Positions 2,975-19,339 of a stretch of 24,000 nucleotides of DNA are shown here, piece by piece. Source of the stretch: Candidatus Bathyarchaeia archaeon (GTDB lineage Archaea; Thermoproteota; Bathyarchaeia; Bathyarchaeales; SOJC01); NCBI GenBank assembly GCA_046538175.1, contig JBKHJI010000006.1:16106-40105 (forward strand). The letters run 5' to 3'. Numbering within the stretch: the first letter of the stretch is position 1; the number at the start of each line of letters is the position of its first letter. Below the pieces are notes generated by a model. It saw only the letters and a program-made list of their open reading frames with translations, searched no databases and was not told where the DNA came from. The position numbers and the translations under genes were made by a program.

Positions 2975-4687
2975 TTAGGTTTCCGCAGGCTTCATTTCTT
3001 CTTCTCGGAGTTCTCTTTTGAGAACTTTACCCACCAACGTCATTGGTAGTTCGGTTCGAAATTCTACTTCTCTTATAGCCTTATAGGATGCAACCCTTTC
3101 ATTAACAAAGTCCACGATTTCTTTTTTTGTTGCTGAAGTTCCCTCTCTCAACACAACGAAGGCCTTAGGAATCTCACCTGCAACAGAATCTGGTTTGCCG
3201 ACTACGCCGCAAAGTTTCACGGCTGGATGTTCATATAATGTATCTTCAAGTTCTCGGGGATAAACACTGTAACCTTTGTATTTGATGAGGTCCTTTTTTC
3301 GATCTGTGACGTAGAAGTATCCATCTTCATCCATCTTTCCGACATCACCCGTGTAAAGCCATTCGCCCTTGAGAACTGTGGTTGTTTCTTCTGGCATTCT
3401 CCAATAGCCTTTCATTACTTGAGGCCCCTTAACCACTACTTCGCCGATTTCACCTGTTTCGAGCTCTCTTTTCCCTGTTTTTACGTCCACAATTTTGGCA
3501 TCAGTGTCTGGCCACGGTAAACCTATAGATCCTACTTTAACGGTTTTCATGGTTCTGTCCAAAGGATTACAATGGGTAACTGGAGAAGCTTCTGTTAGTC
3601 CGTAGCCTTCGACTAGAACGCCGCCAGTGACTTCCATGAATTTTTTTTGAACTTCTGGCGAAAGAGGAGCCGAGCCTGATATGCAGAAGCGGACAGAAGT
3701 GCAGTCGTACTTGTTTAGGTTGGGCTTGTTTACCAGCATCGAATATATGGTGGGGGCGCCGCAAAACACTGTAACTCTATGTTCTTGGATGGCTTTTAAG
3801 GTGCTCACAGAGTCAAAGCGTGGAAGCATAACCATTTTTCCAGCCAGATATATTGGGGCGTTCATTCCCGTGGTCAACCCATAAATGTGAAATAGCGGCA
3901 GCACAACTAGAAAAGTTTCCTTGCCTTCGGCGCTTCCTAGCCATGCGGCACACATAAGGGCGTTTGAAACTAGGTTCATGTGGGTTAGCATGGCACCTTT
4001 GGCAGTTCCGGTTGTGCCGCCAGTATATTGAAGTGTGACCAAATCTTCTTCAGGTTTGATGGCAACTTTTGGCGGGTTCGGCTCGTATTTGTTTAGAAGG
4101 TGATGGAACAAATGGACATGAGATGATCGTTTGATTTTGCGTGAAGGAATTTTTTTGAATAGTGATCCGAGTATAGCTTTGCTTTTGGGTATGTACTCTT
4201 TCAAATTTGCCACGATTACTCTTTTCAGCGAGGTTGTCTTCCATGTTTTTTCTACAATGGGATAAAGCAGGTCTAGAGCCACCAGGGTTTGGGCTTTCGA
4301 ATCGCACAGTTGGTGTTTCACTTCTCGTTCTTTGTACAGTGGGCTTATGCATGTGGTGATTGCGCCGAGTTTTATCGCTCCGTAATAGGAGATTATGAAT
4401 TGAGGGATGTTCGGCAGAAAAAGGGCGACTTTTTCGCCCTTCTTTACGCCGAAATCGTGGAGAGCCGCTGCAAAGCTGTCAGCGGCTAAATTTAGTTCTT
4501 TATAGGTGATTTTTTTGTCAAAATACGTTATCGCCACATTATTAGGGTATTTTTCGGCGGTCTTCTCGAGGAAGTTAAAAAGCGGAACTTTTGGATATTT
4601 GAGATTTTTTGGGACTGATTTGGGCCAATGTTTGAACCATGATTTTTGTAGTTTCTCCACTTTTTTCCGGTTCTTTTTCGCAGGCAT
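2975..4687 (-). CDS. AMP-forming acyl-CoA synthetase (fatty-acid--CoA ligase type)
   Basis: 570 aa with an ATG start. Adenylate-forming enzyme motifs are LQYTGGTTGTAKGAMLTH, VEGYGLTE, YTGDVG and DRKKDLIKYKGYSVYPRELE. Confidence 0.9.
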   Translation of the reverse strand: MPAKKNRKKVEKLQKSWFKHWPKSVPKNLKYPKVPLFNFLEKTAEKYPNNVAITYFDKKITYKELNLAADSFAAALHDFGVKKGEKVALFLPNIPQFIISYYGAIKLGAITTCISPLYKEREVKHQLCDSKAQTLVALDLLYPIVEKTWKTTSLKRVIVANLKEYIPKSKAILGSLFKKIPSRKIKRSSHVHLFHHLLNKYEPNPPKVAIKPEEDLVTLQYTGGTTGTAKGAMLTHMNLVSNALMCAAWLGSAEGKETFLVVLPLFHIYGLTTGMNAPIYLAGKMVMLPRFDSVSTLKAIQEHRVTVFCGAPTIYSMLVNKPNLNKYDCTSVRFCISGSAPLSPEVQKKFMEVTGGVLVEGYGLTEASPVTHCNPLDRTMKTVKVGSIGLPWPDTDAKIVDVKTGKRELETGEIGEVVVKGPQVMKGYWRMPEETTTVLKGEWLYTGDVGKMDEDGYFYVTDRKKDLIKYKGYSVYPRELEDTLYEHPAVKLCGVVGKPDSVAGEIPKAFVVLREGTSATKKEIVDFVNERVASYKAIREVEFRTELPMTLVGKVLKRELREEEMKPAET

Positions 4688-4845
4688 AATTAGTCCTGCT
4701 TTTAAGATAAAAGTTGTTGAGATAATAGTTTTTCTGCGTTTGGGTTATTTTTCGAATTGATGATCTGGTGATGCGAGGCTTGGACGAGTTGATTGCATGG
4801 CTGAAATTGAAAGCTGATTTATAGCGAGGGTGCGGGCAGCTGTCA

Positions 4846-5274
4846 CTAAAGGGGAACGAATTCGTATGTTGGTTGGCCTTCGGCTGTGACTTTGGCTGCT
4901 AGTTTAGCTTTCATGCCAATTGTGATTTCTGACGTTTTAAATCCTGTTAACCATGCAAGCACTTTTATGCCTTCTTTTAGTTTCCCAATTGCAACAGTGT
5001 AGGGTTTATTCTGCTGGAAAGAGGAGGGTCGAATCACTATGTGTGTAAATGTTTCGATCTCTGCTTCGTTGCCAAGCTCGATCCATCGCATTTTTGATGA
5101 TAGGCAAGTTGGACAATCAGCAACCGGTGGAAATTGTAGTTCTTCGCATTTTGCGCATTTTGTCGCGTAGATTTTTCCTTGTTTTAACCCTTCCCAGAAC
5201 TTTAAAGTCTTGTTTATAGGTATGTCTTGCACGATTTTTACTTCTCTCGACTTCATTGAAGGCATAGACGACAT
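4846..5274 (-). CDS. DUF35-type Zn-ribbon/OB-fold protein (partner of archaeal thiolase)
   Basis: 142 aa. A Cys4 zinc ribbon CAKCEELQFPPVADCPTC is followed by an OB-fold-like C-terminus. The ATG lies 4 nt after the thiolase stop, with GGAGA just upstream. Confidence 0.8.
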   Translation of the reverse strand: MSSMPSMKSREVKIVQDIPINKTLKFWEGLKQGKIYATKCAKCEELQFPPVADCPTCLSSKMRWIELGNEAEIETFTHIVIRPSSFQQNKPYTVAIGKLKEGIKVLAWLTGFKTSEITIGMKAKLAAKVTAEGQPTYEFVPL

Positions 5275-5278
5275 CTAA

Positions 5279-6451
5279 TCATCTCCTCAATATTGTCACA
5301 TAACAATAGTGGCCTGTGCCACCTATGTTGTGGGCTAGTGCAATGTAATTTTTCAGTGGAACCTGTCTTCCTTTTTCAACGGCTTCTTCTTTGAGTTGTT
5401 TGGCTAGTTCGTATATCATTGAGCATCCAGTTGTGCCTATTGGGTGGCCTTTCGCCTTTAAGCCACCGTCCACATTCACGGGTGTTTTTCCACCTATCTC
5501 GGTTTGTCCTTCGCGGATGAGTTTGGCACCTTCGCCTTTTTTGCATAGTCCAATGTCTTCGTAGGCCATTATCTCTGCTATGGTGAAGCAGTCGTGGACT
5601 TCGGCAACATCGATTTGGCGGGGGGTGACTCCAGCGCGTCTATACGCTCTTCGGGCAGCATATACACTTGCCTCCAATCCTACGTAATCAGGTCTCTTAC
5701 TCAAGTTTGCTGTTCCTGAAGAGTGTCCTATTCCAGCGACCCACACCGGAGAGTCAATCTTTAATTCTTTGACTTTCTCTTCTGAAGCGAGAATTATGGA
5801 AGTCGATCCGTCAGTTACTGGACAACAGTCCAAAAGTTTTAGAGGTGACGCTATAACCATAGAAGACAACACATCATCGACGGTTATCTTGTTCTGAAGG
5901 TGAGCAACAGGGTTAATTGCGGCATATTTATGGTTCTTAACTGCCACCAACGCCAAGTCTTCTTCGGTGGTTCCAAATCTAGCCATATGAGCATTGGCAT
6001 ATAACGCGTAGTACGCAGGAAATGTTAGGCCGAAATTGTGGAACTCCCAAAAATAGTGACCCGCTCTTCCAATCCACTCCATGGCCGTCAAGGTGTCAAT
6101 TTGCCTCATCTTTTCCAAGCCCACTGCCATCGTTAGTTCAGCTTCACCGCTGGCGATAGCCAAATAGGCGTTGAAAAAGGCCGCGCTTCCGCTTGCACAT
6201 GCCGCTTCACAACGGGTTAGACCAGTTTTCGTCAAACCGCAATACTCGGCTATCACCACTGCAGGTATCAGTTCCTCATAAAATGCTCCAGCACCGGCGG
6301 TTCCTAAAGCCATGAACTCGACGTCTTTTCCGGTTACGCCGGCATCTATTAGAGAGGGTTTTACAGCTTCGAAGGCTAGCTCCGAAACGTTCACGTCATT
6401 TCTGTTGCCGAACTTTGAGGTGCCAGCTCCTATAATCGCCACTTTTTTCAT
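5279..6451 (-). CDS. thiolase-family acetyl-CoA acyltransferase (archaeal/SCP-x type)
   Basis: The N-terminus is MKKVAIIGAGTSKFG, the active-site Cys context is CEAACASGSAAF, and the C-terminal motif is NVDGGLKAKGHPIGTTGCSM. I prefer ATG 6451 to the track's upstream GTG 6460. Confidence 0.9.
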   Translation of the reverse strand: MKKVAIIGAGTSKFGNRNDVNVSELAFEAVKPSLIDAGVTGKDVEFMALGTAGAGAFYEELIPAVVIAEYCGLTKTGLTRCEAACASGSAAFFNAYLAIASGEAELTMAVGLEKMRQIDTLTAMEWIGRAGHYFWEFHNFGLTFPAYYALYANAHMARFGTTEEDLALVAVKNHKYAAINPVAHLQNKITVDDVLSSMVIASPLKLLDCCPVTDGSTSIILASEEKVKELKIDSPVWVAGIGHSSGTANLSKRPDYVGLEASVYAARRAYRRAGVTPRQIDVAEVHDCFTIAEIMAYEDIGLCKKGEGAKLIREGQTEIGGKTPVNVDGGLKAKGHPIGTTGCSMIYELAKQLKEEAVEKGRQVPLKNYIALAHNIGGTGHYCYVTILRR

Positions 6452-6494
6452 AGCAGCCACTCTGCCTTAAAGAGGAGAAGAGAGGGTATTGTAT

Positions 6495-7283
6495 TTACTT
6501 TCCTTTGAATTCTGCTTTCCTTCTTGACATGAAGGCTTCGACGCCTTCTTTAAGATCGTCTGTGGAAAAGGTCAATCCCATCAAGCCTGATTCTAATCGC
6601 AATCCCACCTCCAGCGGCACCTGCGTTCCGAAGTTTAACGCATGTTTTGCATATTTCAAAGCTATAGGCGGACCTTCTGAGAGCTTCTTAGCTAACTCTC
6701 TAACTTCGCTTGTGAGCTTGTCAAAATGCACCACTCTGTTCACTAAGCCTATTTTCAATGCTTCTTCAGCTTTCAACTTGTTTCCCAGCATCACCATTTC
6801 TTTAGCTTGGGCTAAACCTACAGTTCTCACAAGCCTTTGTGTCCCTCCCCAGCCGGGAATAAGCCCTAGAGTTATTTCTGGGCTCCCAAGCTCTGCATGT
6901 TCAGCAGCTACTCTAAAGTCGCATGCTAGAGCCAACTCTAAGCCGCCGCCTAACGCGAAGCCGTTTATCGAAGCTATGACCGGCTTGGACATTTTCTCGA
7001 TTCTAGCGAAGACTTCTTGACCAATCCTTGAGAATTCCTCAGCTTTCACTGGTGTTGCTTTAGGAAACATGGTTATGTCGGCTCCTGCGCTGAAGGCTCT
7101 GTCGCCCTCGCCTGCTATTACTACACATTTGACACTAGGGTCTTTCTCGGCGATGTCAAGCATGTCTGCGAGTTCCTCTAGCAAAACGCTGTTGAAAGCG
7201 TTTAACCGGTGTGGCCTGTTGATCACTATCCACAGAATGCTTTCTTCTCTTTCCACCTTGATGGTTTCGTATGCTTTACTCAA
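6495..7283 (-). CDS. enoyl-CoA hydratase (crotonase family)
   Basis: 262 aa. Crotonase motifs are GEGDRAFSAGADI, INGFALGGGLELALACD and EITLGLIPGWGGTQRL. TTG start. Confidence 0.9.
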   Translation of the reverse strand: MSKAYETIKVEREESILWIVINRPHRLNAFNSVLLEELADMLDIAEKDPSVKCVVIAGEGDRAFSAGADITMFPKATPVKAEEFSRIGQEVFARIEKMSKPVIASINGFALGGGLELALACDFRVAAEHAELGSPEITLGLIPGWGGTQRLVRTVGLAQAKEMVMLGNKLKAEEALKIGLVNRVVHFDKLTSEVRELAKKLSEGPPIALKYAKHALNFGTQVPLEVGLRLESGLMGLTFSTDDLKEGVEAFMSRRKAEFKGK

Positions 7284-7346
7284 AAATTTTCACCACGAGC
7301 ATGGTTTGACTTTTCGGCATATATTGTTTTTTCATGATTTTCGCTG

Positions 7347-8501
7347 TTAGAACTTTCGGAGAAGGTATTTGAGCACGGTTAGCTTTTGGATTTCGGTTGT
7401 CCCTTCGTAGATTTCGGTTATCTTAGCGTCTCTGTGATATCTTTCGACGCGGTACTCGCCCAAGTATCCGTAGCCTCCTAAAGTTTGTATGGCCAAATCT
7501 GTTGTTTCCGTGGCAACTCTGCTTGCATATTGTTTCGCCATCGCCGTGACCATCGGATCCATTTTTCCGGCGTCAATTAGCCATGCGGCTCTGTAGGTGA
7601 GCCATCTCGCAGCTTCAATCTTTGTCATGGCTTCGGCTAATCCGCAGCCTATTAGCTCATGTTGTAATATGGGCTGCCCAAAAGCTTCTCTTTGTTTGGA
7701 GTATTTGAAGGCTATTTCCCAAGCGCCTTGAGCTATGCCCACTGCTTGAGCGGCTACGCCTACTCTGGTTTTGTCGAAGAATTCCATAGAGTGGTAAAAT
7801 CCTTTGTTCAGTTCGCCGACAATGTCTTGATCAGTTACTTTGACGTTGTCAAATTTGATTTCTCCGGTTACTGAACATCTGATGCCCATTTTGTTGTTCA
7901 GCTTCGCGGTTTCGATTCCTGGAGTGTCTTTGTCGACTACGAAAAGGGTTTCTCCTCGATATGTGGGCCTGATTTTGGTGTCTGTTTGTGTTAGGACAAT
8001 TATGAAATTGGCTATTGTGGCGTTTGTGATGAAAGTTTTTGTGCCATTTATCCACCATTCGTTTCCGTATTTGATGGCGGTGGTTTCCATGTGTGTTATG
8101 TCGCTTCCGCTGACGCTAGGTTCGGTGAATGCGGCTGCCGACAAATAGTCGCCTGTACATATTGGGGACAGATATTTTTCTTTCTGGGTTTCGGTGCCGT
8201 TTGTGAGGATGAATTCGCTGCCGAAGCTTCCGCTTGAGATTGCCACGCCTAAGGACGAGTCGGCTCGGCACAGTTCTTCGATGGCTATGCATGTTTCTAG
8301 GAGACCGTATCCTTGTCCGCCGTATTTTTCTGGAAAAAATAGGCTGGTGAGTCCGAGTTTGGCGGCTTTCTTGTAAAGCTCCATGGGGTATTCTTCTTTT
8401 TTGTCTAGTTCCATGGCGAGTTCGGGTTTGAACTCTTTTTGGCAAAAGTCTCTAACGGCTTTCTTGATGTGTTGTTGGTCTTCTGTTAGTTCAAATTTCA
8501 T
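7347..8501 (-). CDS. acyl-CoA dehydrogenase
   Basis: ACAD motifs are FPEKYGGQG, AAFTEPSVSGSD, WINGTKTFITNA and QTLGGYGYLGEYRVERYHRDAKITEIYEGTTEIQ. I place the start at ATG 8501 (MKFELTEDQQ), which forms an ATGA overlap with the upstream gene's TGA stop. The track's 8537 start would add 12 residues inside that gene. Confidence 0.9.
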   Translation of the reverse strand: MKFELTEDQQHIKKAVRDFCQKEFKPELAMELDKKEEYPMELYKKAAKLGLTSLFFPEKYGGQGYGLLETCIAIEELCRADSSLGVAISSGSFGSEFILTNGTETQKEKYLSPICTGDYLSAAAFTEPSVSGSDITHMETTAIKYGNEWWINGTKTFITNATIANFIIVLTQTDTKIRPTYRGETLFVVDKDTPGIETAKLNNKMGIRCSVTGEIKFDNVKVTDQDIVGELNKGFYHSMEFFDKTRVGVAAQAVGIAQGAWEIAFKYSKQREAFGQPILQHELIGCGLAEAMTKIEAARWLTYRAAWLIDAGKMDPMVTAMAKQYASRVATETTDLAIQTLGGYGYLGEYRVERYHRDAKITEIYEGTTEIQKLTVLKYLLRKF

Positions 8502-9688
8502 TTGTAAAATCCTCTTCCAGCTTTTTTGCCCGTCCAACCTTTACTGACATAATCTTCTAGTAGTGGACAGGGATTGTACATTTCCGCGTCATATTTTGCG
8601 TGTAGTTCTTTAAGCTTGGTAACTATGTTGTCTATGCCCGTTCTGTCTGCATATTCGCATGGACCTGAAGGCCAGTATGTGCCCAGCTTCATTCCGGTGT
8701 CGATATCTTCCGGTTTTGCAGTTCCCTCACGGATTAGCCACGCTGCTTCGTTTACGGCTACCGTCCATGATCTGTCGACGTCGTATTCGTCAAGCAGGTT
8801 AAAGGGTATTCTCGGTCTGCCTTTGGTCCAGTCGTAGAATCCGACGCCGGTTTTTTGTCCGAACTTGCCCTCTTTTATGAGGGGTTCCACCACTTCTTTG
8901 CAGAGTTTAAATCGTTCGCCGTAAGCTTTGTGGAGTATTTTTCCAACTTCGTAGGCTATGTCCAGCCCCACAAAATCGGCGAGTTCGAACCACCCCATGG
9001 GGAATCCGCCGGTGTATTTTGCCGAGGCGTCTATGCCTTCTTTTGTTGCTTCCCTTCGGTGGTGAGTCCAGAAAGCCTCGTTGAATACGCTTGCCAAAAT
9101 TCTGTTTACTATGAATCCGCGTACGTCTTTTTTCACGATTACGGGTGTTTTTCCAAGTTTTTCGGTGAGTTTAACTAGCGTGTCTATCGTCTCAGGGCTT
9201 GTGTTTTCTCCTTTCACAATTTCAACCAGTGTCATTAGTTGGGGTGGATTAAAAAAGTGCGTTCCCGCCACTTTGTCTGGACGTTTAGTGGCTTTGCCCA
9301 TGTTGGTTATGCTTAGTGTCGACGTGTTAGTTGTTAGTATGGCGTGCGGAGGAGCTAGCGAATCCATTGTGGAGAATACTTTTTTCTTCAGTTCCATGTT
9401 TTCGGGGACCGCTTCAATTGCTATGTCTATGTTTTTCGCGGCTTTTTCATATTTGGTGGTTGTGATTATTCGTGAAAACGCTGCTGCGGCGTCTTCTTGC
9501 CTGATTCTTTTTTTCTCGGCGAATTTGTTTAGGCTCCACTTGATTTTTTCTTTGGCTTTTTGAAGAAGCTCGATGTTCACATCAACTATTGAGACTTCGT
9601 GTCCGGCCATTGCGAGGATTTGAGCGATTCCGTGGCCCATCGTTCCAGAGCCTAGAACTGCTGCTTTTCTGATTTTCCCAGATGACAA
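8498..9688 (-). CDS. 3-hydroxyacyl-CoA dehydrogenase (NAD-binding plus C-terminal domains)
   Basis: 396 aa. It has a Rossmann motif AAVLGSGTMGHGIAQ and the segment HFFNPPQLMTLVEIV. The TTG start at 9688 has GGAGG (9700..9704 on the plus strand as cctcc) 11 nt upstream. Confidence 0.9.
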   Translation of the reverse strand: MSSGKIRKAAVLGSGTMGHGIAQILAMAGHEVSIVDVNIELLQKAKEKIKWSLNKFAEKKRIRQEDAAAAFSRIITTTKYEKAAKNIDIAIEAVPENMELKKKVFSTMDSLAPPHAILTTNTSTLSITNMGKATKRPDKVAGTHFFNPPQLMTLVEIVKGENTSPETIDTLVKLTEKLGKTPVIVKKDVRGFIVNRILASVFNEAFWTHHRREATKEGIDASAKYTGGFPMGWFELADFVGLDIAYEVGKILHKAYGERFKLCKEVVEPLIKEGKFGQKTGVGFYDWTKGRPRIPFNLLDEYDVDRSWTVAVNEAAWLIREGTAKPEDIDTGMKLGTYWPSGPCEYADRTGIDNIVTKLKELHAKYDAEMYNPCPLLEDYVSKGWTGKKAGRGFYK

Positions 9689-9817
9689 GAAATGGTTTTC
9701 CTCCGCTTGAACTGTTTAATGATGAAGCGAAGCCACAATAAAAGTTTTGGACATAGTTTGGATCGGTTGCCTCGCCGCGTTGCGGAGATTCGGCGCATTT
9801 CTCGGATCTCTTTTTGC

Positions 9818-9837
9818 GCTTGCTGATATCAGCAAGC
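9818..9837. promoter_or_regulatory. perfect 20-bp palindrome GCTTGCTGATATCAGCAAGC in the intergenic region
   Basis: I verified base by base that the reverse complement is identical. It lies about 130 nt upstream of the acyl-CoA operon start (9688) and 37 nt downstream of the FUN14-like stop (9874). Its function as an operator or a hairpin is unproven. Confidence 0.35.
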
Positions 9838-9873
9838 CACGCGGTTTGTTGTTTTGAAACGATGTAGATATAG

Positions 9874-10182
9874 TTATCCGAGTTGGAGACCAAGTACGAA
9901 GCCTAGGACGAAGCTTCCTGCGAAAGGTAGAACGGATACCATTGCGATGAACCATGGGATTGTTTCGCCTACGAAGCCTAGAAAGTCGGCTACCATTTCC
10001 CAGAGTGCTTCGTAGTTTATTGAGATTATGTTGTTTATGCCTAGGTAGAGTAGGAAGATCATGAGGAGTCCTGCTAGAACTACTATGAGTTTGCTTAGCT
10101 TTTTAATGGCGTATCCGACTATGAATCCGCCTATTCCGCCTATGCCTAACTGGTAGGCGAGGGGGGGCAAGATGTCGATCAA
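9874..10182 (-). CDS. small membrane protein, FUN14-like
   Basis: 102 aa and strongly hydrophobic, with about three helices. The glycine-rich segment LGIGGIGGFIVGYAIKK resembles the FUN14 family. TTG start with GAGGA 7 nt upstream. Confidence 0.5.
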   Translation of the reverse strand: MIDILPPLAYQLGIGGIGGFIVGYAIKKLSKLIVVLAGLLMIFLLYLGINNIISINYEALWEMVADFLGFVGETIPWFIAMVSVLPFAGSFVLGFVLGLQLG

Positions 10183-10228
10183 ATGTTTTTCCTCGAGATT
10201 TTCATATGAGGGTTTCTGGTTTAAATGG

Positions 10229-11194
10229 CTATTGCATTTTTGGCATTTTAAAGTCTGTGATTTTCTTTTGCATGCTTCCTTCTTTGAGTGCTACTATGTG
10301 TTCAACTACGTCTGAGGGTTTTTGGAAGCTGAGTTTTTGTAGGGCTTTGAATCCCCACTGGGAGCATTTTATGCTTGAGATTACCGAGGCAACTGTGACC
10401 GATTTCATCAGGTCTTCGGTTGTGATGTACGTCGCTAGGAATGCTCCATTCCAAGCGTCTCCAGCTCCCGTAGTGTCTATTGTTTTGTTTGTTGGAACGG
10501 TTAGTGCGGGGATTATTTGGGGGTCAACGTTGGTTCCGCTTATTATGGCGCCTAATTTTCCCATGGTTACGACTAGTTTTGGGGCTTTTATTTTCTCTAG
10601 GGCCATGGAGAGTGAGCTTGTTTGGGTGAGCGTTTTTGCTTCGGATTCGTTGAGCATGAAAAAGTCGACAACTGAGGCGAGTTTGGTGAGTAGTCTTCGG
10701 TTTCTTGGTTCTTTCATGTATCCTACCCAAGTGCTGAGGGCTATTTTTGTGGAGGGTGACATCTGTTTGACGCGGTCTACTATTTTGGCAACTTTTGTTG
10801 GAGACATCGGTGACAGGTGGATTATGCTTTGTGGTGTCAGTAGTTTTTGCGGAATCTGCACTGTAGCAATTCTTGCACCAGCGTTTATGTGGGCTTCTAG
10901 GTAGTTGGCTTCCCAGTTCTTACTGTAGCGTATGTGAAATCTGGTGGTAGGCATGTTGAATTTTTTTATGTATGTGGAGTCTAAGCTGTCGAAGCTGTCT
11001 GTGTAGGGAAAGTCTTTTCCTATGGCAGAGACTATTGCTGGTTTGAGGTTTAGCGCTTTCGCGGCGATTGCGGCGTACAATGCGGCTCCGCCTGGCTGGG
11101 TTTTTGTTCCGTTGATGTTTTCTATTTTGTCGATTGAAATGTGGCCTATGAAGGTGAGGTTTGGGTGGGGCGGATTTGCGGTTTGTCGGTTCAT
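10229..11194 (-). CDS. PfkB-family carbohydrate/nucleoside kinase
   Basis: 321 aa. It carries the PfkB signature DTTGAGDAWNGAFL and an N-terminal GGAALYAAIAA segment. The ATG lies only 29 nt after the herA-like stop. Substrate cannot be assigned. Confidence 0.85.
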   Translation of the reverse strand: MNRQTANPPHPNLTFIGHISIDKIENINGTKTQPGGAALYAAIAAKALNLKPAIVSAIGKDFPYTDSFDSLDSTYIKKFNMPTTRFHIRYSKNWEANYLEAHINAGARIATVQIPQKLLTPQSIIHLSPMSPTKVAKIVDRVKQMSPSTKIALSTWVGYMKEPRNRRLLTKLASVVDFFMLNESEAKTLTQTSSLSMALEKIKAPKLVVTMGKLGAIISGTNVDPQIIPALTVPTNKTIDTTGAGDAWNGAFLATYITTEDLMKSVTVASVISSIKCSQWGFKALQKLSFQKPSDVVEHIVALKEGSMQKKITDFKMPKMQ

Positions 11195-11223
11195 TTGTAG
11201 ATTTGTTTCCTGGTGGCGTTAGA

Positions 11224-13119
11224 TTAGATTTGAGTTGTAGTGGTGTGAGTTGATAGGAATTTTTCGAGTTCGTTTTCGGCGTTGTCTGCTCGGATGAATA
11301 TGGGGACGTTTTCTATGCCTGTGGCTATGTAGCTGGACAGTAGCCATTCGCCTGGTGCGAATTCAAGTGTTTTTTCGAGTATGCTTTGGTCTATCATGAA
11401 GGTGCTGCTGACCACGGTGCGGTCGTAGGGGCGGGGTAGTGTACCGACGAAGTAGGTGTGGAGTTGTTGCAGGGCGTTGGTGTTTAGGTAGGCGAGTCTT
11501 TGGGTGGCGATACAGGCGCCTAAGCCGTATTTTCTTCCTTGTCTTAGTAGGGTTTCGACTTGTTTGCTGCATTTTTTGTCTATGCCAGTGGAGTTTGTTA
11601 GGTCGGGGATGAATTCTTGGGCTTCGTCGAAGACGAGGAGGATGTAGGGTTTGACTTGGAATCTGCGTTTTCTGCGGACGAGGAGATCACGTGTGAGGGT
11701 TATGACAAGTTCTTTTATGGTTTGCGGGTCTGATAGGGAGATGCAGACGATTCTTGTTTCGCCTTCTAGGAGGCTACGGATTTTTTCGGCGGCAAGTCCG
11801 CCGACTTCTTTGTGTTCTTCTTCTTGTCTCTTCTTTATGGTTTCTTTTAGGGCGTTTCTTGTGGTTGCCCAAGCGTAGAGGCCGCTTTTTTCGTGGACTT
11901 TGAATGCTTGGATGGTTTCGAATGCTATGGGTTCTATGTATTCGATGAATTGTTGGTTGATTTCTTGGTTTTCGCTTAGGGCTTGTTGATCTATGTATTC
12001 GTGGATGGCGTCGCTGATTTTGTCTATAGCGTTTACGTAGTGGGGTTTGTCGGTGCTGCCCTTTCTTTGAGTTTCGAGTTCTTCTAGGAATTCGCTGTAG
12101 GTGGGAACTTTTTGTTTAGGTTTGGTGTAGTATGAGAGTTTGCCTTGGTTGAAGATTTTTTGGAGTCCAGTTTTTATTCTTTGGTCGATTTCGTATTCTC
12201 GGGGTTTGACTACCGAGTTGAAGAATTGCTCTAGAGATTCGATTTTGTGTTCTAGGATGATTTTGGAGGGAATGGTCGGGTCTGAGAGGACGTCAAGGAG
12301 TAGGAAGATGTATTCGCAGCTAATGTCGAAGATGATGATTTTTGTGTCTTGGATGTGTAGTAAGATGCGTCTGAGGATGTTTGACATGATGTTGCTTTTG
12401 CCGCCTCCTGTGAAGGCGAAGACGCCGAAGTGGTAGCGTACGAGGTTTTCGAAGTCGATGTAGATGGGGATTGTTGTTTTGCTGGCTTGGAACATTTTGA
12501 TTAGGCCTAGTCTTGGGTCTTTGTGGGCGTCTGACGTGGTCTTTGAGGGGTCGACGTTTAGTTTTTGGGTGATTTTTTGGTTGTACATGCGGTTTATCAT
12601 TTTGCTGTTGAGGATGTAGGCGGGGCTGGCTATGATGGGGTAGCTGAAGCCTTTTATGAATTTGCATTGGTCGTTTGGGTGTAAGATGAGGTCGTAGTTT
12701 ATGGGGATGGCGCTTATTTGTATCATCATGGTGGCTTTGTCGTCGGTTTGCCAGTCTGCTTCTGATTGTTCTATGATTTCGAATTGCATGGGGTAATAGC
12801 CGTGGTCTGAGATGCCTCGGAGGCCGAAGTGTTCTGGCCATACGCGGCTGATTTCCATGAGGGTGTATCTTTCGGTGTTGGGTTCGGTTTGTTTAAAGTT
12901 GGGAATCGCTATGAGCATGCCTTCTTCGAGGAGGCCCATGAGGTCTTTTTGGTATTCCACTTTGATGCGGGCTTCGTAGCGAGCGCTTATGCCTGTGAAT
13001 TGGGAGTCGCTTGTGATGCCGAATTGGCGGGGTGTTACGTGGCTTAGGCGGGCGTGGAATCTGCCGTCAAAGTCGGTGAAGCATGTTTGGTTAAGTGGTT
13101 TCTCTTCTTGTGGCTTCAA
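11224..13119 (-). CDS. HerA/DUF87-type (FtsK-HerA superfamily) P-loop ATPase, enlarged
   Basis: 631 aa with an N-terminal barrel-like segment. Walker A is FAFTGGGKSN (nt 12394..12417) and Walker B is LLVFDEAQEF (nt 11623..11640). The C-terminus LLRQGRKYGLGACIATQRLAYLN is typical of HerA. About 255 mostly helical, E/K/Q-rich residues separate Walker A from Walker B. The TTG start is preceded by AAGGAGAG and lies inside the upstream gene. Confidence 0.85.
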   Translation of the reverse strand: MKPQEEKPLNQTCFTDFDGRFHARLSHVTPRQFGITSDSQFTGISARYEARIKVEYQKDLMGLLEEGMLIAIPNFKQTEPNTERYTLMEISRVWPEHFGLRGISDHGYYPMQFEIIEQSEADWQTDDKATMMIQISAIPINYDLILHPNDQCKFIKGFSYPIIASPAYILNSKMINRMYNQKITQKLNVDPSKTTSDAHKDPRLGLIKMFQASKTTIPIYIDFENLVRYHFGVFAFTGGGKSNIMSNILRRILLHIQDTKIIIFDISCEYIFLLLDVLSDPTIPSKIILEHKIESLEQFFNSVVKPREYEIDQRIKTGLQKIFNQGKLSYYTKPKQKVPTYSEFLEELETQRKGSTDKPHYVNAIDKISDAIHEYIDQQALSENQEINQQFIEYIEPIAFETIQAFKVHEKSGLYAWATTRNALKETIKKRQEEEHKEVGGLAAEKIRSLLEGETRIVCISLSDPQTIKELVITLTRDLLVRRKRRFQVKPYILLVFDEAQEFIPDLTNSTGIDKKCSKQVETLLRQGRKYGLGACIATQRLAYLNTNALQQLHTYFVGTLPRPYDRTVVSSTFMIDQSILEKTLEFAPGEWLLSSYIATGIENVPIFIRADNAENELEKFLSTHTTTTQI

Positions 13120-15004
13120 TTGCAGCTCTCCTTTCTCGGAAGGTGTTCATGTAGTATACGAATTTTTTTAATTTATGGTTGTTGAGTATCCAGTTGGCGG
13201 TGGTGTCGGCGACGCGTTTGAATTGGCTGTAGTGCCATTTGGCGATTTTGTCTGCTATGAAGAGGGGTTTGTTGTGGCCGAAGGCTTCAGGTATGCTGTG
13301 CGGAGTCATGGCGGCTAGGATGGTCATGGTGAGGTTTTGAATTGGGTTGGGCACAGTTTTGTCTTTGTAGAGTATGATTTCGACGGGTTCTTTTGCGCCT
13401 CCGAATTCGTTCCAGAATTTCATCGTGGTGTCAGGGGTGTAGTCATATTCTGGGATGACTAGGCGGTCAACGAGGAGAACGTTGCTGCGCATTAAAGAGT
13501 CTTTTTTGGCTTGGGCGAGTTGGACATAGGTTTTGAGGAAGGTTTTTTCGAGGCTTATTCTGTTTTTTATGGCGCCTAACACGTGGCCTTTCCGAGTTTG
13601 AGGGTCTGGAATCATGGTGCGGAAGGCAGAGTCGTATTCTGTTAGACTCCATGGGATTTTGGTTTTTTCAGGGTTAAAGAGGCTGGCAGACTGGAGTATA
13701 AAGCGGTCAGTGTTGGGGAGTTTCGCATAGTCTTCGGGTTTGACTTGGCTTTGTAGTACGCCTTCGTTGTTGAGGATGGGGATCAATTGTCGTTTCATGT
13801 CTCGAGCCGCGGTGTCCTTCGTTATGCCTATGAGGAGTATTCGGTTGTTCCAGCAGGCTTCTATGAGCATTTGGAGGGTGAAGAGGGTTAGAAAAGCTAT
13901 GTCGAGGGTGGTGAGCCATTGTTCTTTTTCGTTTTTTTGGATTTTCATTGGGTTCGCGGTGGGGGTTTCAAGTGTTTGGGTGTAGAAGAAGCGGTCGCCG
14001 AGGATGGTTACTAGACGTTTGAGTCTGTTCCAAGTGGTTGCGTATTTGGGGTTTATGGTGTAGGTTTGGTTTTTTCCTGTGAGGATGTTTTCTTTTACGG
14101 ATTTTTTTAGGTATTTTTCGGCGCGTTTGGCTCTTTTGTTGTCTGTTATGCCTAGTTGTTGTAAGATTTGGGTTTTGGAGATAGGGCTTCTTTGTTGTGT
14201 TAGATGGTGGATTATAGCGTAGCGTAGGTAGTCGGCTCTTGCTGGTGGGAGGTCTAAGGCTTGGTTTTGGATATGTTGTCTGCCTAAGGTGAGGTCGTTG
14301 ATGTCGATGGGTGTGCCGTCTATTTCGTAGTCTAGGAGGCTGCTTTTGGTTTTCCAGTGTTCTCGTTTTGATGTGTCGTAGAGGAGGCTGGCTTGTTCTG
14401 TGGATAGGCTTCGGTCGAGGAGTATGACTTGGGTTTTTTGTTTTGGGTCGGTGGCTAGTTTGTAGGCGAGGTAGTATTCGGCGAAGGTCATTATCCAGTT
14501 GGCGACGGTGGCGTTGTTTATGATGGCAGTGTCCTGTAACGGTTGGTTGAGGGCTACTTCTTCGGGTTGTTCTGGACTGAAGAAGGTTTGATCTATGTTT
14601 GGAACTTCGTTGATGTAGATGGGGGCGACGCTAGAGATTCCTGTCCCGTGTTGAATTGCTTTTGTGTCGTATCGAATTACGGGTTTAGAGTCAGACATGA
14701 AGGTTATCATGCCGGTTGAGGCGTAGGCGCCGCCGAAGAAAATTACGAGATCAAAAAGGGGGCGCGAGTACATCGTGCCATCTATAGCAGCGAAACGCAT
14801 AGAAGTAGAGCCGAAATATTTTCTGGCTGTATCATATGCTTTTTCAATGCTAAAGTTTGAAACTATGAGGTTGGAGAGAAAACTTTCGTGGAATGTTTTC
14901 AAGAGGGCGAAGCAACTTTCATAGTCGTTGATTTGGTTAGAAGCGCCTGATCTGAGCAAGTTGCTTGCTCTTTCAATTGTGCTGCTTAAAGGGGACAAAG
15001 ACAT
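13091..15004 (-). CDS. NurA-like (RNase H-fold) nuclease with a large central insertion containing a wHTH-like segment
   Basis: 637 aa. Candidate NurA motifs occur in the canonical order: FAAIDGT (D75, nt 14780..14782), FAEYY (E176), VILLDRSL (D197), LLIGITKDT, and C-terminal NKPLFIADKIAK. ATG 15004 is preceded by GGTGAT. The assignment is by motif pattern only. Confidence 0.55.
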   Translation of the reverse strand: MSLSPLSSTIERASNLLRSGASNQINDYESCFALLKTFHESFLSNLIVSNFSIEKAYDTARKYFGSTSMRFAAIDGTMYSRPLFDLVIFFGGAYASTGMITFMSDSKPVIRYDTKAIQHGTGISSVAPIYINEVPNIDQTFFSPEQPEEVALNQPLQDTAIINNATVANWIMTFAEYYLAYKLATDPKQKTQVILLDRSLSTEQASLLYDTSKREHWKTKSSLLDYEIDGTPIDINDLTLGRQHIQNQALDLPPARADYLRYAIIHHLTQQRSPISKTQILQQLGITDNKRAKRAEKYLKKSVKENILTGKNQTYTINPKYATTWNRLKRLVTILGDRFFYTQTLETPTANPMKIQKNEKEQWLTTLDIAFLTLFTLQMLIEACWNNRILLIGITKDTAARDMKRQLIPILNNEGVLQSQVKPEDYAKLPNTDRFILQSASLFNPEKTKIPWSLTEYDSAFRTMIPDPQTRKGHVLGAIKNRISLEKTFLKTYVQLAQAKKDSLMRSNVLLVDRLVIPEYDYTPDTTMKFWNEFGGAKEPVEIILYKDKTVPNPIQNLTMTILAAMTPHSIPEAFGHNKPLFIADKIAKWHYSQFKRVADTTANWILNNHKLKKFVYYMNTFRERRAAIEATRRETT

Positions 15005-15293
15005 TTAATCACCGTTATGCACACGTGCACATTTCAACGGCTAACAAGCTGGATACTTCCAGCTACCAAAAGAGGCTACTGTTTATTAAAATGTTCCTAA
15101 CCGTGCAATTATGATGGTTATAACACCTTGGATGCGAATTTCTCAAGATTCATAGTTTTAGGCTAACGGTCTTGAGGTTTCTACTTAGTTGTTGTTCTGT
15201 CTCGTTTTCGTTTTGTCCTCTCCAAAAGAAACGGAATGCTGACCAAAAATTCTCTGCATGTGATGAGAGTATCCAAGAAAAGACAAGTCATTC

Positions 15294-17897: not shown

Positions 17898-18334
17898 CTA
17901 CTGAATCTTCAAGATTTCTTTAGTTTTAACCACAAATTCTTCAGCTGTTCTTATGACATCAAGAGCACCTTCTTCAGAAAACGTGAGACCATAATCTGGT
18001 GTCTGCCGGAGATTCATTGCATCTTCAAATCCTTGAATTAGAGAGGATTCAAGTTCATCACTGAAAAGCTCTTGAATAGAAACTAAAAGCGCGTAATGAC
18101 TCTTTTCACGAAACCTTTGCTGTATAGTAATGCTCTTGCAGCATAAAAAATCGAGTAGTAACCCTGGACTATAGCCCATTTGAAATTTTCATCTTTCAAA
18201 GAATTCCTTGCAGTTTCAAGGTCCGATTCCGCTCCTTCTATTTCTTTGAGGACAAATTTTCTATCTGGCTTAATTCTGATAAGCCTTCTTTCTTCGAGCA
18301 ACCGTTTGAATTTGAAACTTACTCGTGTTCCCAT
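17898..18334 (-). pseudogene. HEPN-domain protein (toxin partner of MNT), split by a 1-nt frameshift
   Basis: Track ORFs 18083..18334 and 17898..18179 are the two halves of one HEPN domain. The first ends ...AIVQGYYSIFYAARALLYSKGF. The second continues (F)REKSHYALLVSIQ...NLRQTPDYG. The frames join at the aaa run 18111..18113 (TTT on the coding strand), and one extra T would restore a single ORF. Confidence 0.7.
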
Positions 18335-18861
18335 AGCGTTATACCTTTTGAAATCCTTTCATACAAGGGCTTGTCCTTTGTCTTCATTTTCGCAAGTCCG
18401 TTTGAATCAACAATTATTGGAGCAATTCTTCTGTTAATTTTTTGTTTATAAAGTCTTACTTCACGTTGAACGGTTTCCACGTCAGATGTTAATACGAATA
18501 TATCTATGTCGCTATCTCTCACATCGGTTCCTTTAGCACAACTTCCGAACAAGACAACTCTGTCCGAGACTTCTTTGATTTTCTCAATCAATTCGTTAAG
18601 AGCTAATACATTGAACAAGACTTTGAACTGTCTTGCAGCAGGATTCTTCAAGTTTGCTCTGTAAAGATTTGTTTTTCCTCGTCTACTCATCTCAACAAAA
18701 CCTGCTTGGTGGAATTTTCGCAAAAATTGATTCACCGCACCTACGCTTACAGTTGTTAGCCGGGCTATCTCTCTTCCATGAAATTGACCCATCGGATTGG
18801 ATAAGAGAAAATATAAAATTTCAAGACTTTTGCCAGTTATAAAATCCGTTTGTTTGGACAT
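18319..18861 (-). CDS. minimal nucleotidyltransferase (MNT) antitoxin-type protein with N-terminal winged-helix domain
   Basis: 180 aa. The N-terminal wHTH-like segment is GREIARLTTVSVGAVNQFLRKFHQAGFVE. The MNT signature is VLFGSCAKGTDVRDSDIDIFVL. Its 3' end overlaps the HEPN start by 16 nt. Confidence 0.85.
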   Translation of the reverse strand: MSKQTDFITGKSLEILYFLLSNPMGQFHGREIARLTTVSVGAVNQFLRKFHQAGFVEMSRRGKTNLYRANLKNPAARQFKVLFNVLALNELIEKIKEVSDRVVLFGSCAKGTDVRDSDIDIFVLTSDVETVQREVRLYKQKINRRIAPIIVDSNGLAKMKTKDKPLYERISKGITLWEHE

Positions 18862-18862
18862 A

Positions 18863-19339
18863 CTAAAACTCTATTCCTATTCTTCTGACCATTATTTCTG
18901 CTATTTCAGAAAGCGTGATCCATTGCTTTCGAGGCTTCATTATTTGTTCGTTTCCGCTTCTCGAAGGCAGAATCCGCTTATGCGAATTTATCATAATCCT
19001 TAGGTTCCTCAATGTATCAGCGTAGCTTGAGCCAATGAAATCAAAGAATCGCTTAAGATTGTAGTACCCAAATACCCTTAACCTGTAGCAATCCTCAGTT
19101 ATTTTCAAAACACTCGAGCCTAAGCTACTATTCTTTCTTAAGTGAAACTCAATGATGTAGCGGATGTTCATTGATCTAAGGAAATGAGCAATTTTCTGAA
19201 GTAAATCATGGTTTGTGTTCGTTATAATGATTTGTTTTTGTGTGACATAGATAAATCCATCTCCATCAAAGAAACCTCTAACATAATCTCTAGAAATCGG
19301 AGAACTTCCTTGTAAGGAACGTTCATTTTTTTGTTGCAT
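18863..19339 (-). CDS. free-standing LAGLIDADG-family homing endonuclease-like protein (single motif)
   Basis: 158 aa. The N-terminal motif YVRGFFDGDGFIYV matches the LAGLIDADG consensus, and the size fits homodimeric single-motif members. Its TAG stop lies 1 nt before the MNT ATG. Confidence 0.7.
   Translation of the reverse strand: MQQKNERSLQGSSPISRDYVRGFFDGDGFIYVTQKQIIITNTNHDLLQKIAHFLRSMNIRYIIEFHLRKNSSLGSSVLKITEDCYRLRVFGYYNLKRFFDFIGSSYADTLRNLRIMINSHKRILPSRSGNEQIMKPRKQWITLSEIAEIMVRRIGIEF

Follow-up and report, generated by a model that had tools for sequence, protein, structure and literature searches.

The best described relatives of the locus reported here are the archaeal HerA-NurA pairs, two-gene units of a nuclease and a ring-forming ATPase with structures available from Sulfolobus solfataricus (4d2i/2ygk), Pyrococcus furiosus (3tai) and Thermococcus kodakarensis (9x1l-9x1p), the solved complexes consisting of a HerA hexamer and a NurA dimer (PMC7690668; PDB 9x1l-9x1p). 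Stand-alone NurA-HerA pairs without adjacent mre11/rad50 occur in Deinococcus radiodurans and Thermus, with a documented function in end resection (PMC9960219). HerA-family motors are also joined to other effectors in the anti-phage SIR2-HerA and DUF4297-HerA systems and in the DndFGH/DptH-type capture systems. In sediments, Bathyarchaeia count among the most abundant uncultured archaea and, to our knowledge, their DNA-repair machinery is essentially uncharacterised. Here we analyse a gene pair in a 24,000-nucleotide stretch of contig JBKHJI010000006.1 from a Candidatus Bathyarchaeia archaeon (this whole stretch is called the window hereafter), which an earlier note, made from the letters alone, had taken for a stand-alone, oversized NurA-like nuclease and HerA-like ATPase with overlapping reading frames. 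As judged from sequence comparison and a predicted structure, the two genes appear to encode a NurA subfamily of its own, hitherto unannotated and bearing a winged-helix insertion, which is partnered by a separate HerA clade; the pair is kept throughout an archaeal class. The locus resembles the archaeal systems in being a two-gene unit of a nuclease and a putative ring ATPase, and differs from them in not being encoded with mre11/rad50.

The nuclease and its ATPase partner

The nurA-like gene (13091..15004, minus strand, ATG start) is an open reading frame (ORF) whose 637-amino-acid translation is on record, at 100% identity, as a 'hypothetical protein' from a Candidatus Bathyarchaeia metagenome-assembled genome (MAG); for its listed close relatives public databases give neither a functional name nor a Pfam domain, those with a name being likewise 'hypothetical protein'. 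The protein itself gives no Pfam match even at E values up to 1, the NurA model PF09376 included, and none in NCBIfam or PADLOC; a profile of its close homologues found no match among PDB sequences. The NurA-like assignment of the earlier note nonetheless holds by profile and predicted structure, although in the case of Pfam it does so via the relatives only. A search of 1.84 billion cluster representatives retrieved 371 related clusters, reaching down to about 24% identity and mostly of about 600 amino acids. The diverse alignment used below comprises 73 full-length family members, among which an NCBIfam scan returned nothing relevant and 52 match PF09376 when scanned singly (E up to 1; best E 2.8e-11); a precomputed PF09376 annotation is present on four relatives. 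The profile of the 73 sequences matches P. furiosus NurA 3tai (E 0.0016), the aligned stretches being the IDG, LLD and PL..A(D/H) motifs. A first AlphaFold model, built from 45 close homologues, was poor (predicted local distance difference test score, pLDDT, of 53.5) and was replaced by a model from the 73-sequence alignment (pLDDT 91.4; predicted template modelling score, pTM, 0.91), in which the protein adopts an RNase H-like fold of the NurA type. The ten best Foldseek matches of this model in the PDB are all NurA (E 6e-8 to 9e-6), including the T. kodakarensis HerA-NurA complex solved by cryo-electron microscopy and the NurA proteins of P. furiosus and S. solfataricus, and the next match lies at E 0.03, which leaves the archaeal HerA-NurA structures as the only significant ones. 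The Pfam NurA matches of the relatives, the profile match to 3tai and the NurA-only significant structural matches indicate that, by profile and model, the 637-residue protein is a highly diverged NurA.

The positions that bind the catalytic metals in archaeal NurA are conserved as well. D75, within AAIDGT on strand beta-1 (codon at 14780..14782, minus strand), would be the first catalytic Asp, since its IDG motif aligns with the IDG/VDGS motif of P. furiosus NurA, whose Asp51 is an essential Mn2+ ligand (PMC3300031). D197, within ILLDRSL on strand beta-4 (14414..14416, minus strand), aligns with the Asp of ILMDG (Asp126) and would be the second, and D585, within PLFIADKIA (13250..13252, minus strand), aligns with the first His of PLQLAHH (His411) at the fourth metal-binding position, the correspondence with Asp51, Asp126 and His411 having been assigned by tag-offset numbering. 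The putative catalytic Glu is E176 of the FAEYY motif on helix alpha-1 (14477..14479, minus strand), matched to Glu105 by spacing only: it stands 21 residues before D197, as Glu105 does before Asp126, and the HMMER alignment begins after it. Unlike the P. furiosus enzyme, with its His, the window nuclease has an Asp at the fourth position, which is likewise acidic in T. maritima NurA and in TtAgo/Argonaute (PMC3300031). The NurA catalytic set, that is, Asp on beta-1, Glu on alpha-1, Asp on beta-4 and a fourth His or acidic ligand, is present in full. Across the 73 relatives, down to 21% identity, the residues D75, E176, D197, K396, D397, D433, D458, R514 and G576 never vary, D585 is conserved to at least 90%, and K396 and D397 belong to the motif LLIGITKDT.

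Both proteins had been called oversized, which is true of the nuclease, with 637 amino acids versus the 319-433 residues of solved NurA chains, and only mildly so of the ATPase, with 631 versus 500-696 in solved HerA chains. Most of the extra length of the nuclease consists of a winged helix-turn-helix insertion and further beta-rich segments, which set it apart from archaeal NurA. The AlphaFold model places the insertion at residues ~255-320 (14045..14242, minus strand), between strands beta-4 and beta-5 of the RNase H core, as three helices followed by a beta-hairpin (H259-271, H277-283, H289-304, E308-311, E314-317). This region has weak family-profile matches (E 0.018-0.06) to the Lrp/AsnC-type regulators 1i1g, 9w4v and 7fby, as well as local Foldseek matches to the winged helices of MarR, IclR and TFE-alpha, and some members of the nuclease family match Pfam HTH_24, HTH_20 or TrmB. 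The insertion is conserved within the Bathyarchaeia clade rather than hypervariable. It is a structural feature without counterpart in solved NurA proteins; our literature searches turned up no description of a NurA with a winged helix, and we know of none described for the Deinococcus/Thermus NurA. The winged helix probably provides a DNA-binding, regulatory or partner contact that canonical NurA lacks.

The herA-like gene (11224..13119, minus strand, TTG start) encodes a 631-amino-acid ATPase of the FtsK/HerA superfamily, and a HerA-family partner, as the earlier note had it, is borne out by Pfam, by profile matches to solved chains and by invariant Walker motifs. The protein matches DUF87 (PF01935), the HerA central domain, with E 4.4e-16 and 60.1 bits against a cut-off of 23.2, and its family profile matches solved HerA chains of both the repair type (4d2i, 9x1l) and the defence type (8wiv, 8xau, 8j4u) with E values of 1e-19 to 1e-12, those for 8wiv, 8xau, 4d2i and 9x1l lying between 1e-19 and 6e-16; the defence HerA chains 8wiv, 8xau, 8j4u, 9c1m and 8ziq, together with DptH 7es4, match it about as well as canonical HerA does. 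No Deinococcus chain is among the significant PDB matches to either window protein. Many PADLOC HerA models also match, the best being 'HerA, Type III coevolved' (E 1.7e-38). A region of about 200 residues precedes the ATPase core, which shares with archaeal HerA the DUF87 domain and the Walker A, Walker B and RKYG motifs. Walker A (AFTGGGKSN with K241, within the quoted FAFTGGGKSN; 12391..12417, minus strand) has T237, G238, G240, K241, S242 and N243 invariant in 27 ATPase homologues, bacterial ones included; in Walker B (LLVFDEAQEF with D498/E499; 11611..11640, minus strand) D498, E499, E502 and F503 are invariant among the homologues, as is the RQGRKYG motif. The scores against the NCBIfam equivalogs are nevertheless far below every cut-off, both for canonical archaeal HerA (NF040819, 49.9 bits versus 970; NF040937, 45.8 versus 800) and for anti-phage HerA (NF042943, 48.2 versus 800; NF042944, 40.1 versus 850), so that the ATPase falls into a separate HerA clade. 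This divergence from the archaeal systems, about 50 bits where the canonical models demand 800-970, parallels that of the nuclease, which is too divergent for the Pfam NurA model. The exact 631-residue sequence (P0121) is on record only from a Logan assembly and not in the NCBI annotation of the MAG that bears the nuclease; the NCBI gene model therefore probably has another start or is missing.

Arrangement and conservation of the gene pair

Both ORFs were found on the minus strand where the earlier note had placed them, and every motif it quoted was recovered from the translations, including GRKYGLGACIATQR of the ATPase. Its description of overlapping frames is equally accurate: the 5' end of the herA-like gene shares 29 nt (13091..13119, minus strand) with the nurA-like 3' end, and its TTG start (13119-13117) lies inside the nuclease gene behind AAGGAGAG, a Shine-Dalgarno-like purine run (13126..13133, minus strand). 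The arrangement is conserved across relatives, TTG being the herA-like start in 55/55 alignable loci, with an overlap of 29 nt in 46 of them and of 23 nt in 7. Since the motif residues are invariant in 73 relatives and the TTG recurs in all 55 loci, neither the motifs nor the overlapping start can be put down to chance. The purine run is kept as GAGAGAGGMGAG at homologous loci; the same stretch encodes the invariant nuclease C-terminus FRERR..IE, so that its conservation is not attributable to ribosome binding alone. Coupling through the TTG start had been taken to suggest a fixed stoichiometry, but the 6:2 ratio of the known HerA-NurA complex does not obviously follow from it. In the intergenic region 5' of the nurA-like gene (15005..15293, minus strand) a TATA-like TTTAATAAA (15082-15090, minus strand) and a GGTGAT just 5' of the ATG (15008-15013, minus strand), both read from the sequence, may be regarded as a candidate promoter and a candidate ribosome-binding element of this gene, respectively, an assignment that we infer from the letters.

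A scan of GTDB with one genome per species and a single peptide pattern confirmed 175 relatives, and the best 80 of these, almost all labelled Bathyarchaeia, served as the locus set. Among database clusters at 90% identity, 1270 match the nuclease and 1805 the ATPase; in the best 120 the identities are 64-77% and 73-87%, respectively, and all sources that bear a name are Bathyarchaeia MAGs. In about 75 of the 80 loci the nuclease gene is followed directly by the ATPase gene, and there are a few departures from this arrangement. On one 779-kb contig (L001 and L004) the two genes are about 70 kb apart and still 68% and 77% identical to the window proteins; in three species (L008, L017 and L082) the nuclease and ATPase genes are separated by 1-2 kb of unrelated genes, the ATPase start then being ATG, and on the complete 1.2-Mb chromosome CP070791.1 (L036) no ATPase gene lies within 10 kb of the nuclease gene. 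In a comparison of 440 genome pairs, nuclease and ATPase have median identities of 70.8% and 76.9%, respectively; the alpha, beta and gamma subunits of pyruvate:ferredoxin oxidoreductase from the same genomes reach 77.1%, 83.9% and 75.9%. The pair evolves at about the rate of these neighbouring genes, four subunits of the oxidoreductase being recurrent neighbours in 29-38 loci, alongside a radical-SAM protein, acetyltransferases, PadR, ribosomal protein S7 and PyrI. The housekeeping neighbours, the enzyme-like rate and the retention of both genes even when 70 kb apart fit a vertically inherited core pair, and in Bathyarchaeia the two genes behave as such a pair, under strong constraint. A Bathyarchaeia-type pair was also met in contigs labelled Sulfotelmatobacter (L059), Limnocylindrales (L066), Dormiibacterota (L077) and Jordarchaeia (L086), with the nuclease 46-56% identical; these contigs are likely mis-binned, the other possibility being real transfers.

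As to the canonical resection genes, Pfam detected no mre11 or rad50 (Metallophos/Mre11 and Rad50 families) among the large ORFs of the window, and neither Mre11 nor Rad50 is among the recurrent neighbour families of the 80 loci; the herA-mre11-rad50-nurA operon adjacency was not found. Both the window and the 80 neighbourhoods support the earlier proposal of a stand-alone, non-canonical NurA-HerA unit unlinked to mre11/rad50. No relative of the pair was found on viral contigs, and none on plasmids, whether of the archaeal or the bacterial type.

Neighbouring genes and base composition of the window

Elsewhere in the window Pfam identifies an overall archaeal gene set, comprising aIF5B, a beta-oxidation cluster, a PfkB kinase, a PAS histidine kinase, a helix-turn-helix (HTH)-nucleotidyltransferase, a LAGLIDADG_3 ORF, HSP20, a DDE transposase, FKBP and a PD-(D/E)XK protein. 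The beta-oxidation-type cluster is complete (2975-9688, minus strand), with an AMP-binding acyl-CoA ligase, a ChsH2-like OB/zinc-ribbon protein, a thiolase, an enoyl-CoA hydratase, an acyl-CoA dehydrogenase and a 3-hydroxyacyl-CoA dehydrogenase. A 232-amino-acid ORF on the plus strand (10206-10904), antisense to the PfkB kinase gene, has no Pfam match and is probably spurious, as the plus strand is here rich in G+T and poor in A, and stop codons are rare.

The earlier note had leaned towards a defence island on account of a nearby insertion sequence (IS), a LAGLIDADG gene, a toxin-antitoxin module and a tRNA fragment. The HTH plus nucleotidyltransferase protein (18319-18861, minus strand) and a 158-amino-acid LAGLIDADG_3 ORF (18863-19339, minus strand), which ends one base before the nucleotidyltransferase starts, are in place, and the former matches the PADLOC candidate family PDC-M05A (E 4e-25), the only such match among the IS, LAGLIDADG and nucleotidyltransferase neighbours. 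The adjoining 93-amino-acid ORF (17898-18179) has no family match, so that the toxin-antitoxin module is half identified, and ARAGORN finds no tRNA or tmRNA gene in the window (1-24000), leaving the tRNA fragment unconfirmed. The defence-island argument itself is not supported for this clade, because the IS, LAGLIDADG and nucleotidyltransferase genes are not conserved neighbours of the pair and belong to this contig, while the 80 loci show housekeeping genes.

The pair also lies in an extremely strand-asymmetric block of the window (7200-15000, with its peak at 10000-14800), which further holds the downstream co-oriented PfkB, FUN14, HCDH and ACAD genes. The skewed coding strand uses almost only A- and C-ending codons, A+C reaching 0.90 at third positions; the third-position fractions of A, C, G and T are 0.37, 0.53, 0.05 and 0.05 for the ATPase gene and 0.34, 0.48, 0.07 and 0.11 for the nuclease gene. 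First codon positions and the amino-acid composition are shifted too, and on the plus strand keto bases (G+T) make up 0.62-0.75 of the sequence over 10000-14800. The skew sets in abruptly at the 5' end of the nuclease gene and fades slowly across the co-oriented genes downstream, down to about 7200. Where the amino acids are identical, the substitutions relative to unskewed homologues are mainly T to C and G to A, with A to C and G to C as well. The skew is common to the five closest relatives, including the genome with unlinked genes, where each gene is skewed and its neighbours are not, and was also noted for L001, L002/L003, L004, L007, L009, L011 and L016; the majority of the remaining Bathyarchaeia homologues do not show it, and some of these genomes have comparable patches at other places. 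In L009 the opposite-strand genes inside the patch have a complementary bias, which points to a process acting on the DNA strand rather than to codon selection. Plain translational selection is unlikely given this complementary bias, the shifted first positions and amino acids and an unbiased aIF5B, and transcription-associated deamination of the coding strand predicts a skew of the opposite sign.

Possible roles and significance

By analogy with the solved archaeal HerA-NurA complexes, the HerA-like protein would form a hexamer that uses ATP to translocate double-stranded DNA into a dimer of NurA seated on one face of its ring, and the RNase H-like site of the nuclease (D75, E176, D197 and D585, with two-metal chemistry) would digest one or both strands, the inserted winged helix providing an added contact with DNA or a partner. 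The likeliest task of the pair would be to resect the ends of broken or linear DNA, or to degrade such DNA, so that recombination can proceed and replication restart. The analysis establishes the homology and fold of the proteins, the conservation of their catalytic and ATPase residues, the linkage of the genes, their phyletic pattern and their rate of evolution; that the two proteins form a complex, with what stoichiometry, on which substrate, in which polarity and to what cellular end, we infer. For the Bathyarchaeia pair, phyletic distribution and rate favour, with a probability of roughly 60%, a constitutive DNA-end-processing role, encoded independently of mre11/rad50, over that of an accessory anti-virus system.

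Several observations weigh against this reading. Within 10 kb of 86 loci, 80 of them from the scan of the Bathyarchaeia clade, a motif heuristic found no convincing Mre11/Rad50-like ORF, its sole flag being a 254-amino-acid phosphoesterase-like ORF at L062. The sub-cut-off scores of the ATPase and the invisibility of the nuclease to the Pfam NurA model argue that the pair forms a separate clade and is not orthologous to the Sulfolobus/Pyrococcus proteins. Should a canonical mre11-rad50-herA-nurA operon be present in Bathyarchaeia as well, another function would have to be sought for a second resection machine; a search of the literature on Bathyarchaeota/Bathyarchaeia together with HerA, NurA, Mre11 or Rad50 found nothing specific. 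Finally, the nearest branches outside Bathyarchaeia are patchy in bacteria and stand beside DNA-modification genes typical of restriction-like systems.

This last point brings in the alternative that survives best, although we consider it improbable: a 'capture and degrade' module of innate immunity, fixed in Bathyarchaeia, in which HerA would pull in DNA that is foreign or unmodified for destruction by the NurA-like nuclease, self being told from non-self by the winged helix or by an unlinked DNA-modification system. HerA/FtsK-anchored capture systems are an established concept (PMC12839542), and the window pair shares with the known anti-phage HerA systems the combination of a HerA-family motor with an effector and, in its bacterial relatives, the position beside DNA-modification genes. 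The same nuclease-ATPase unit recurs outside Bathyarchaeia at 23-47% identity, and even relatives of no more than 23-31% identity still have the two genes paired. A branch seeded with a Fimbriimonadales protein, its members being 45-55% identical to that seed, is scattered across Armatimonadota, Cyanobacteria, Anaerolineae, Thermodesulfovibrio, Terriglobales, Desulfotomaculum and Nitrosotenuis and was sampled in 80 metagenomic loci (L090-L169), L005 and L089 being also of this bacterial type. In 33 of the 44 bacterial-type loci with enough flank the pair adjoins a gene resembling tRNA-guanine transglycosylase (TGT-like, DpdA-like) and/or a DUF6884 (YaaA/DpdC-like) gene; subsets carry preQ0-type transporters (Vut_1 or QueT), and others a UvrD-like helicase, SIR2 with an ORC/Cdc6-like protein, or PD-(D/E)XK or GIY-YIG nucleases. 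L088, a relative from a separate branch, has the pair inside a dndB-dndA-dndE-dndD-dndC (phosphorothioation) cluster, and in the window itself the PADLOC candidate gene PDC-M05A lies 3.3 kb from the pair.

In the Bathyarchaeia clade, however, no TGT-like or DUF6884 gene lies within 10 kb of any of the 80 loci, the neighbours are metabolic and ribosomal, and the pair is as slow as central-metabolism enzymes and syntenic across species, with a winged helix that does not hypervary. Defence genes are typically patchy and fast-evolving; patchiness, variable defence neighbours and fast evolution are absent from the Bathyarchaeia clade and met with only in the bacterial-type branch. The anti-phage NCBIfam cut-offs are missed by a wide margin, as detailed above, and it is only on this contig that the pair has IS, LAGLIDADG and nucleotidyltransferase genes for neighbours. 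Unlike the anti-phage systems, moreover, the partner of the window ATPase is NurA-like and not SIR2, DUF4297 or DndF/G, and Pfam found no SIR2 or DUF4297 gene among the large ORFs of the window.

The bacterial loci call for a reading of their own. DUF6884 is a YaaA-like family, and YaaA/DUF328 is also the family of DpdC (PMC11701544; PMC12839542), so that the flanking TGT-like gene, the distantly DpdC-related DUF6884 and the preQ0-type transporters, which flank the pair in most bacterial-type loci, recall the Dpd (7-deazaguanine) system. Such genes are absent from the window and from the 80 Bathyarchaeia-clade loci, and a NurA-HerA pair is not a described Dpd component in the literature that we searched; no ParB-like, DpdB-type gene is among the ten neighbour families annotated by Pfam in the bacterial-type loci, and we found no paper on an association of NurA-HerA with TGT or DUF6884 or of DpdA with HerA. 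The bacterial pair beside TGT-like/DUF6884 genes, like the relative in the dnd cluster, may be an undescribed modification-linked restriction module, and the wider NurA-HerA family may have a defence-type origin, since the bacterial relatives are patchy and next to DNA-modification genes. It is tempting, if rather doubtful, to speculate that a long NurA with a winged helix and HerA would be the effector of an undescribed modification-linked immunity (7-deazaguanine or phosphorothioate, in bacteria), of which the Bathyarchaeia clade would be an ancient fixed derivative, policing DNA through an unlinked modification or replacing the canonical Mre11-Rad50-coupled resection.

Chromosome segregation or DNA pumping is the role first proposed for HerA-NurA in archaea without FtsK, and the pair could serve as such an apparatus of this lineage rather than as a repair nuclease. 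This we regard as very unlikely. It would agree with the place of HerA among the pumping ATPases that make up the FtsK-HerA superfamily (Iyer et al. 2004, as cited in PMC12839542), with the class-wide conservation at a core-gene rate and with the independence from mre11/rad50, but the invariance of the full catalytic set argues that DNA cleavage is the selected activity, the conserved neighbourhoods contain no cell-division genes and all experimentally studied HerA-NurA pairs act in end resection (PMC7690668). An accessory function in type III CRISPR-Cas, as for the HerA/NurA pairs that co-evolve with type III modules in Thermoproteota (PMC6546367), was suggested by the best PADLOC match of the ATPase, but this match is partial, its best stretch covering 353-526 of 532, none of the PADLOC NurA models matches the nuclease, and the link is effectively refuted by the lack of any adjacent cassette, no cas-type family occurring among the Pfam-scanned window ORFs or the examined recurrent neighbours of the 80 Bathyarchaeia-clade and about 80 bacterial-type loci.

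A nuclease family is now assigned to NurA, each member being paired with a dedicated HerA motor. An entire archaeal class appears to keep this putative nuclease-translocase away from mre11/rad50, which makes it a test case for HerA-NurA acting without Mre11-Rad50. In bacteria, the TGT-like/DUF6884 and dnd contexts point to a possible new modification-dependent restriction system built on the same two proteins.

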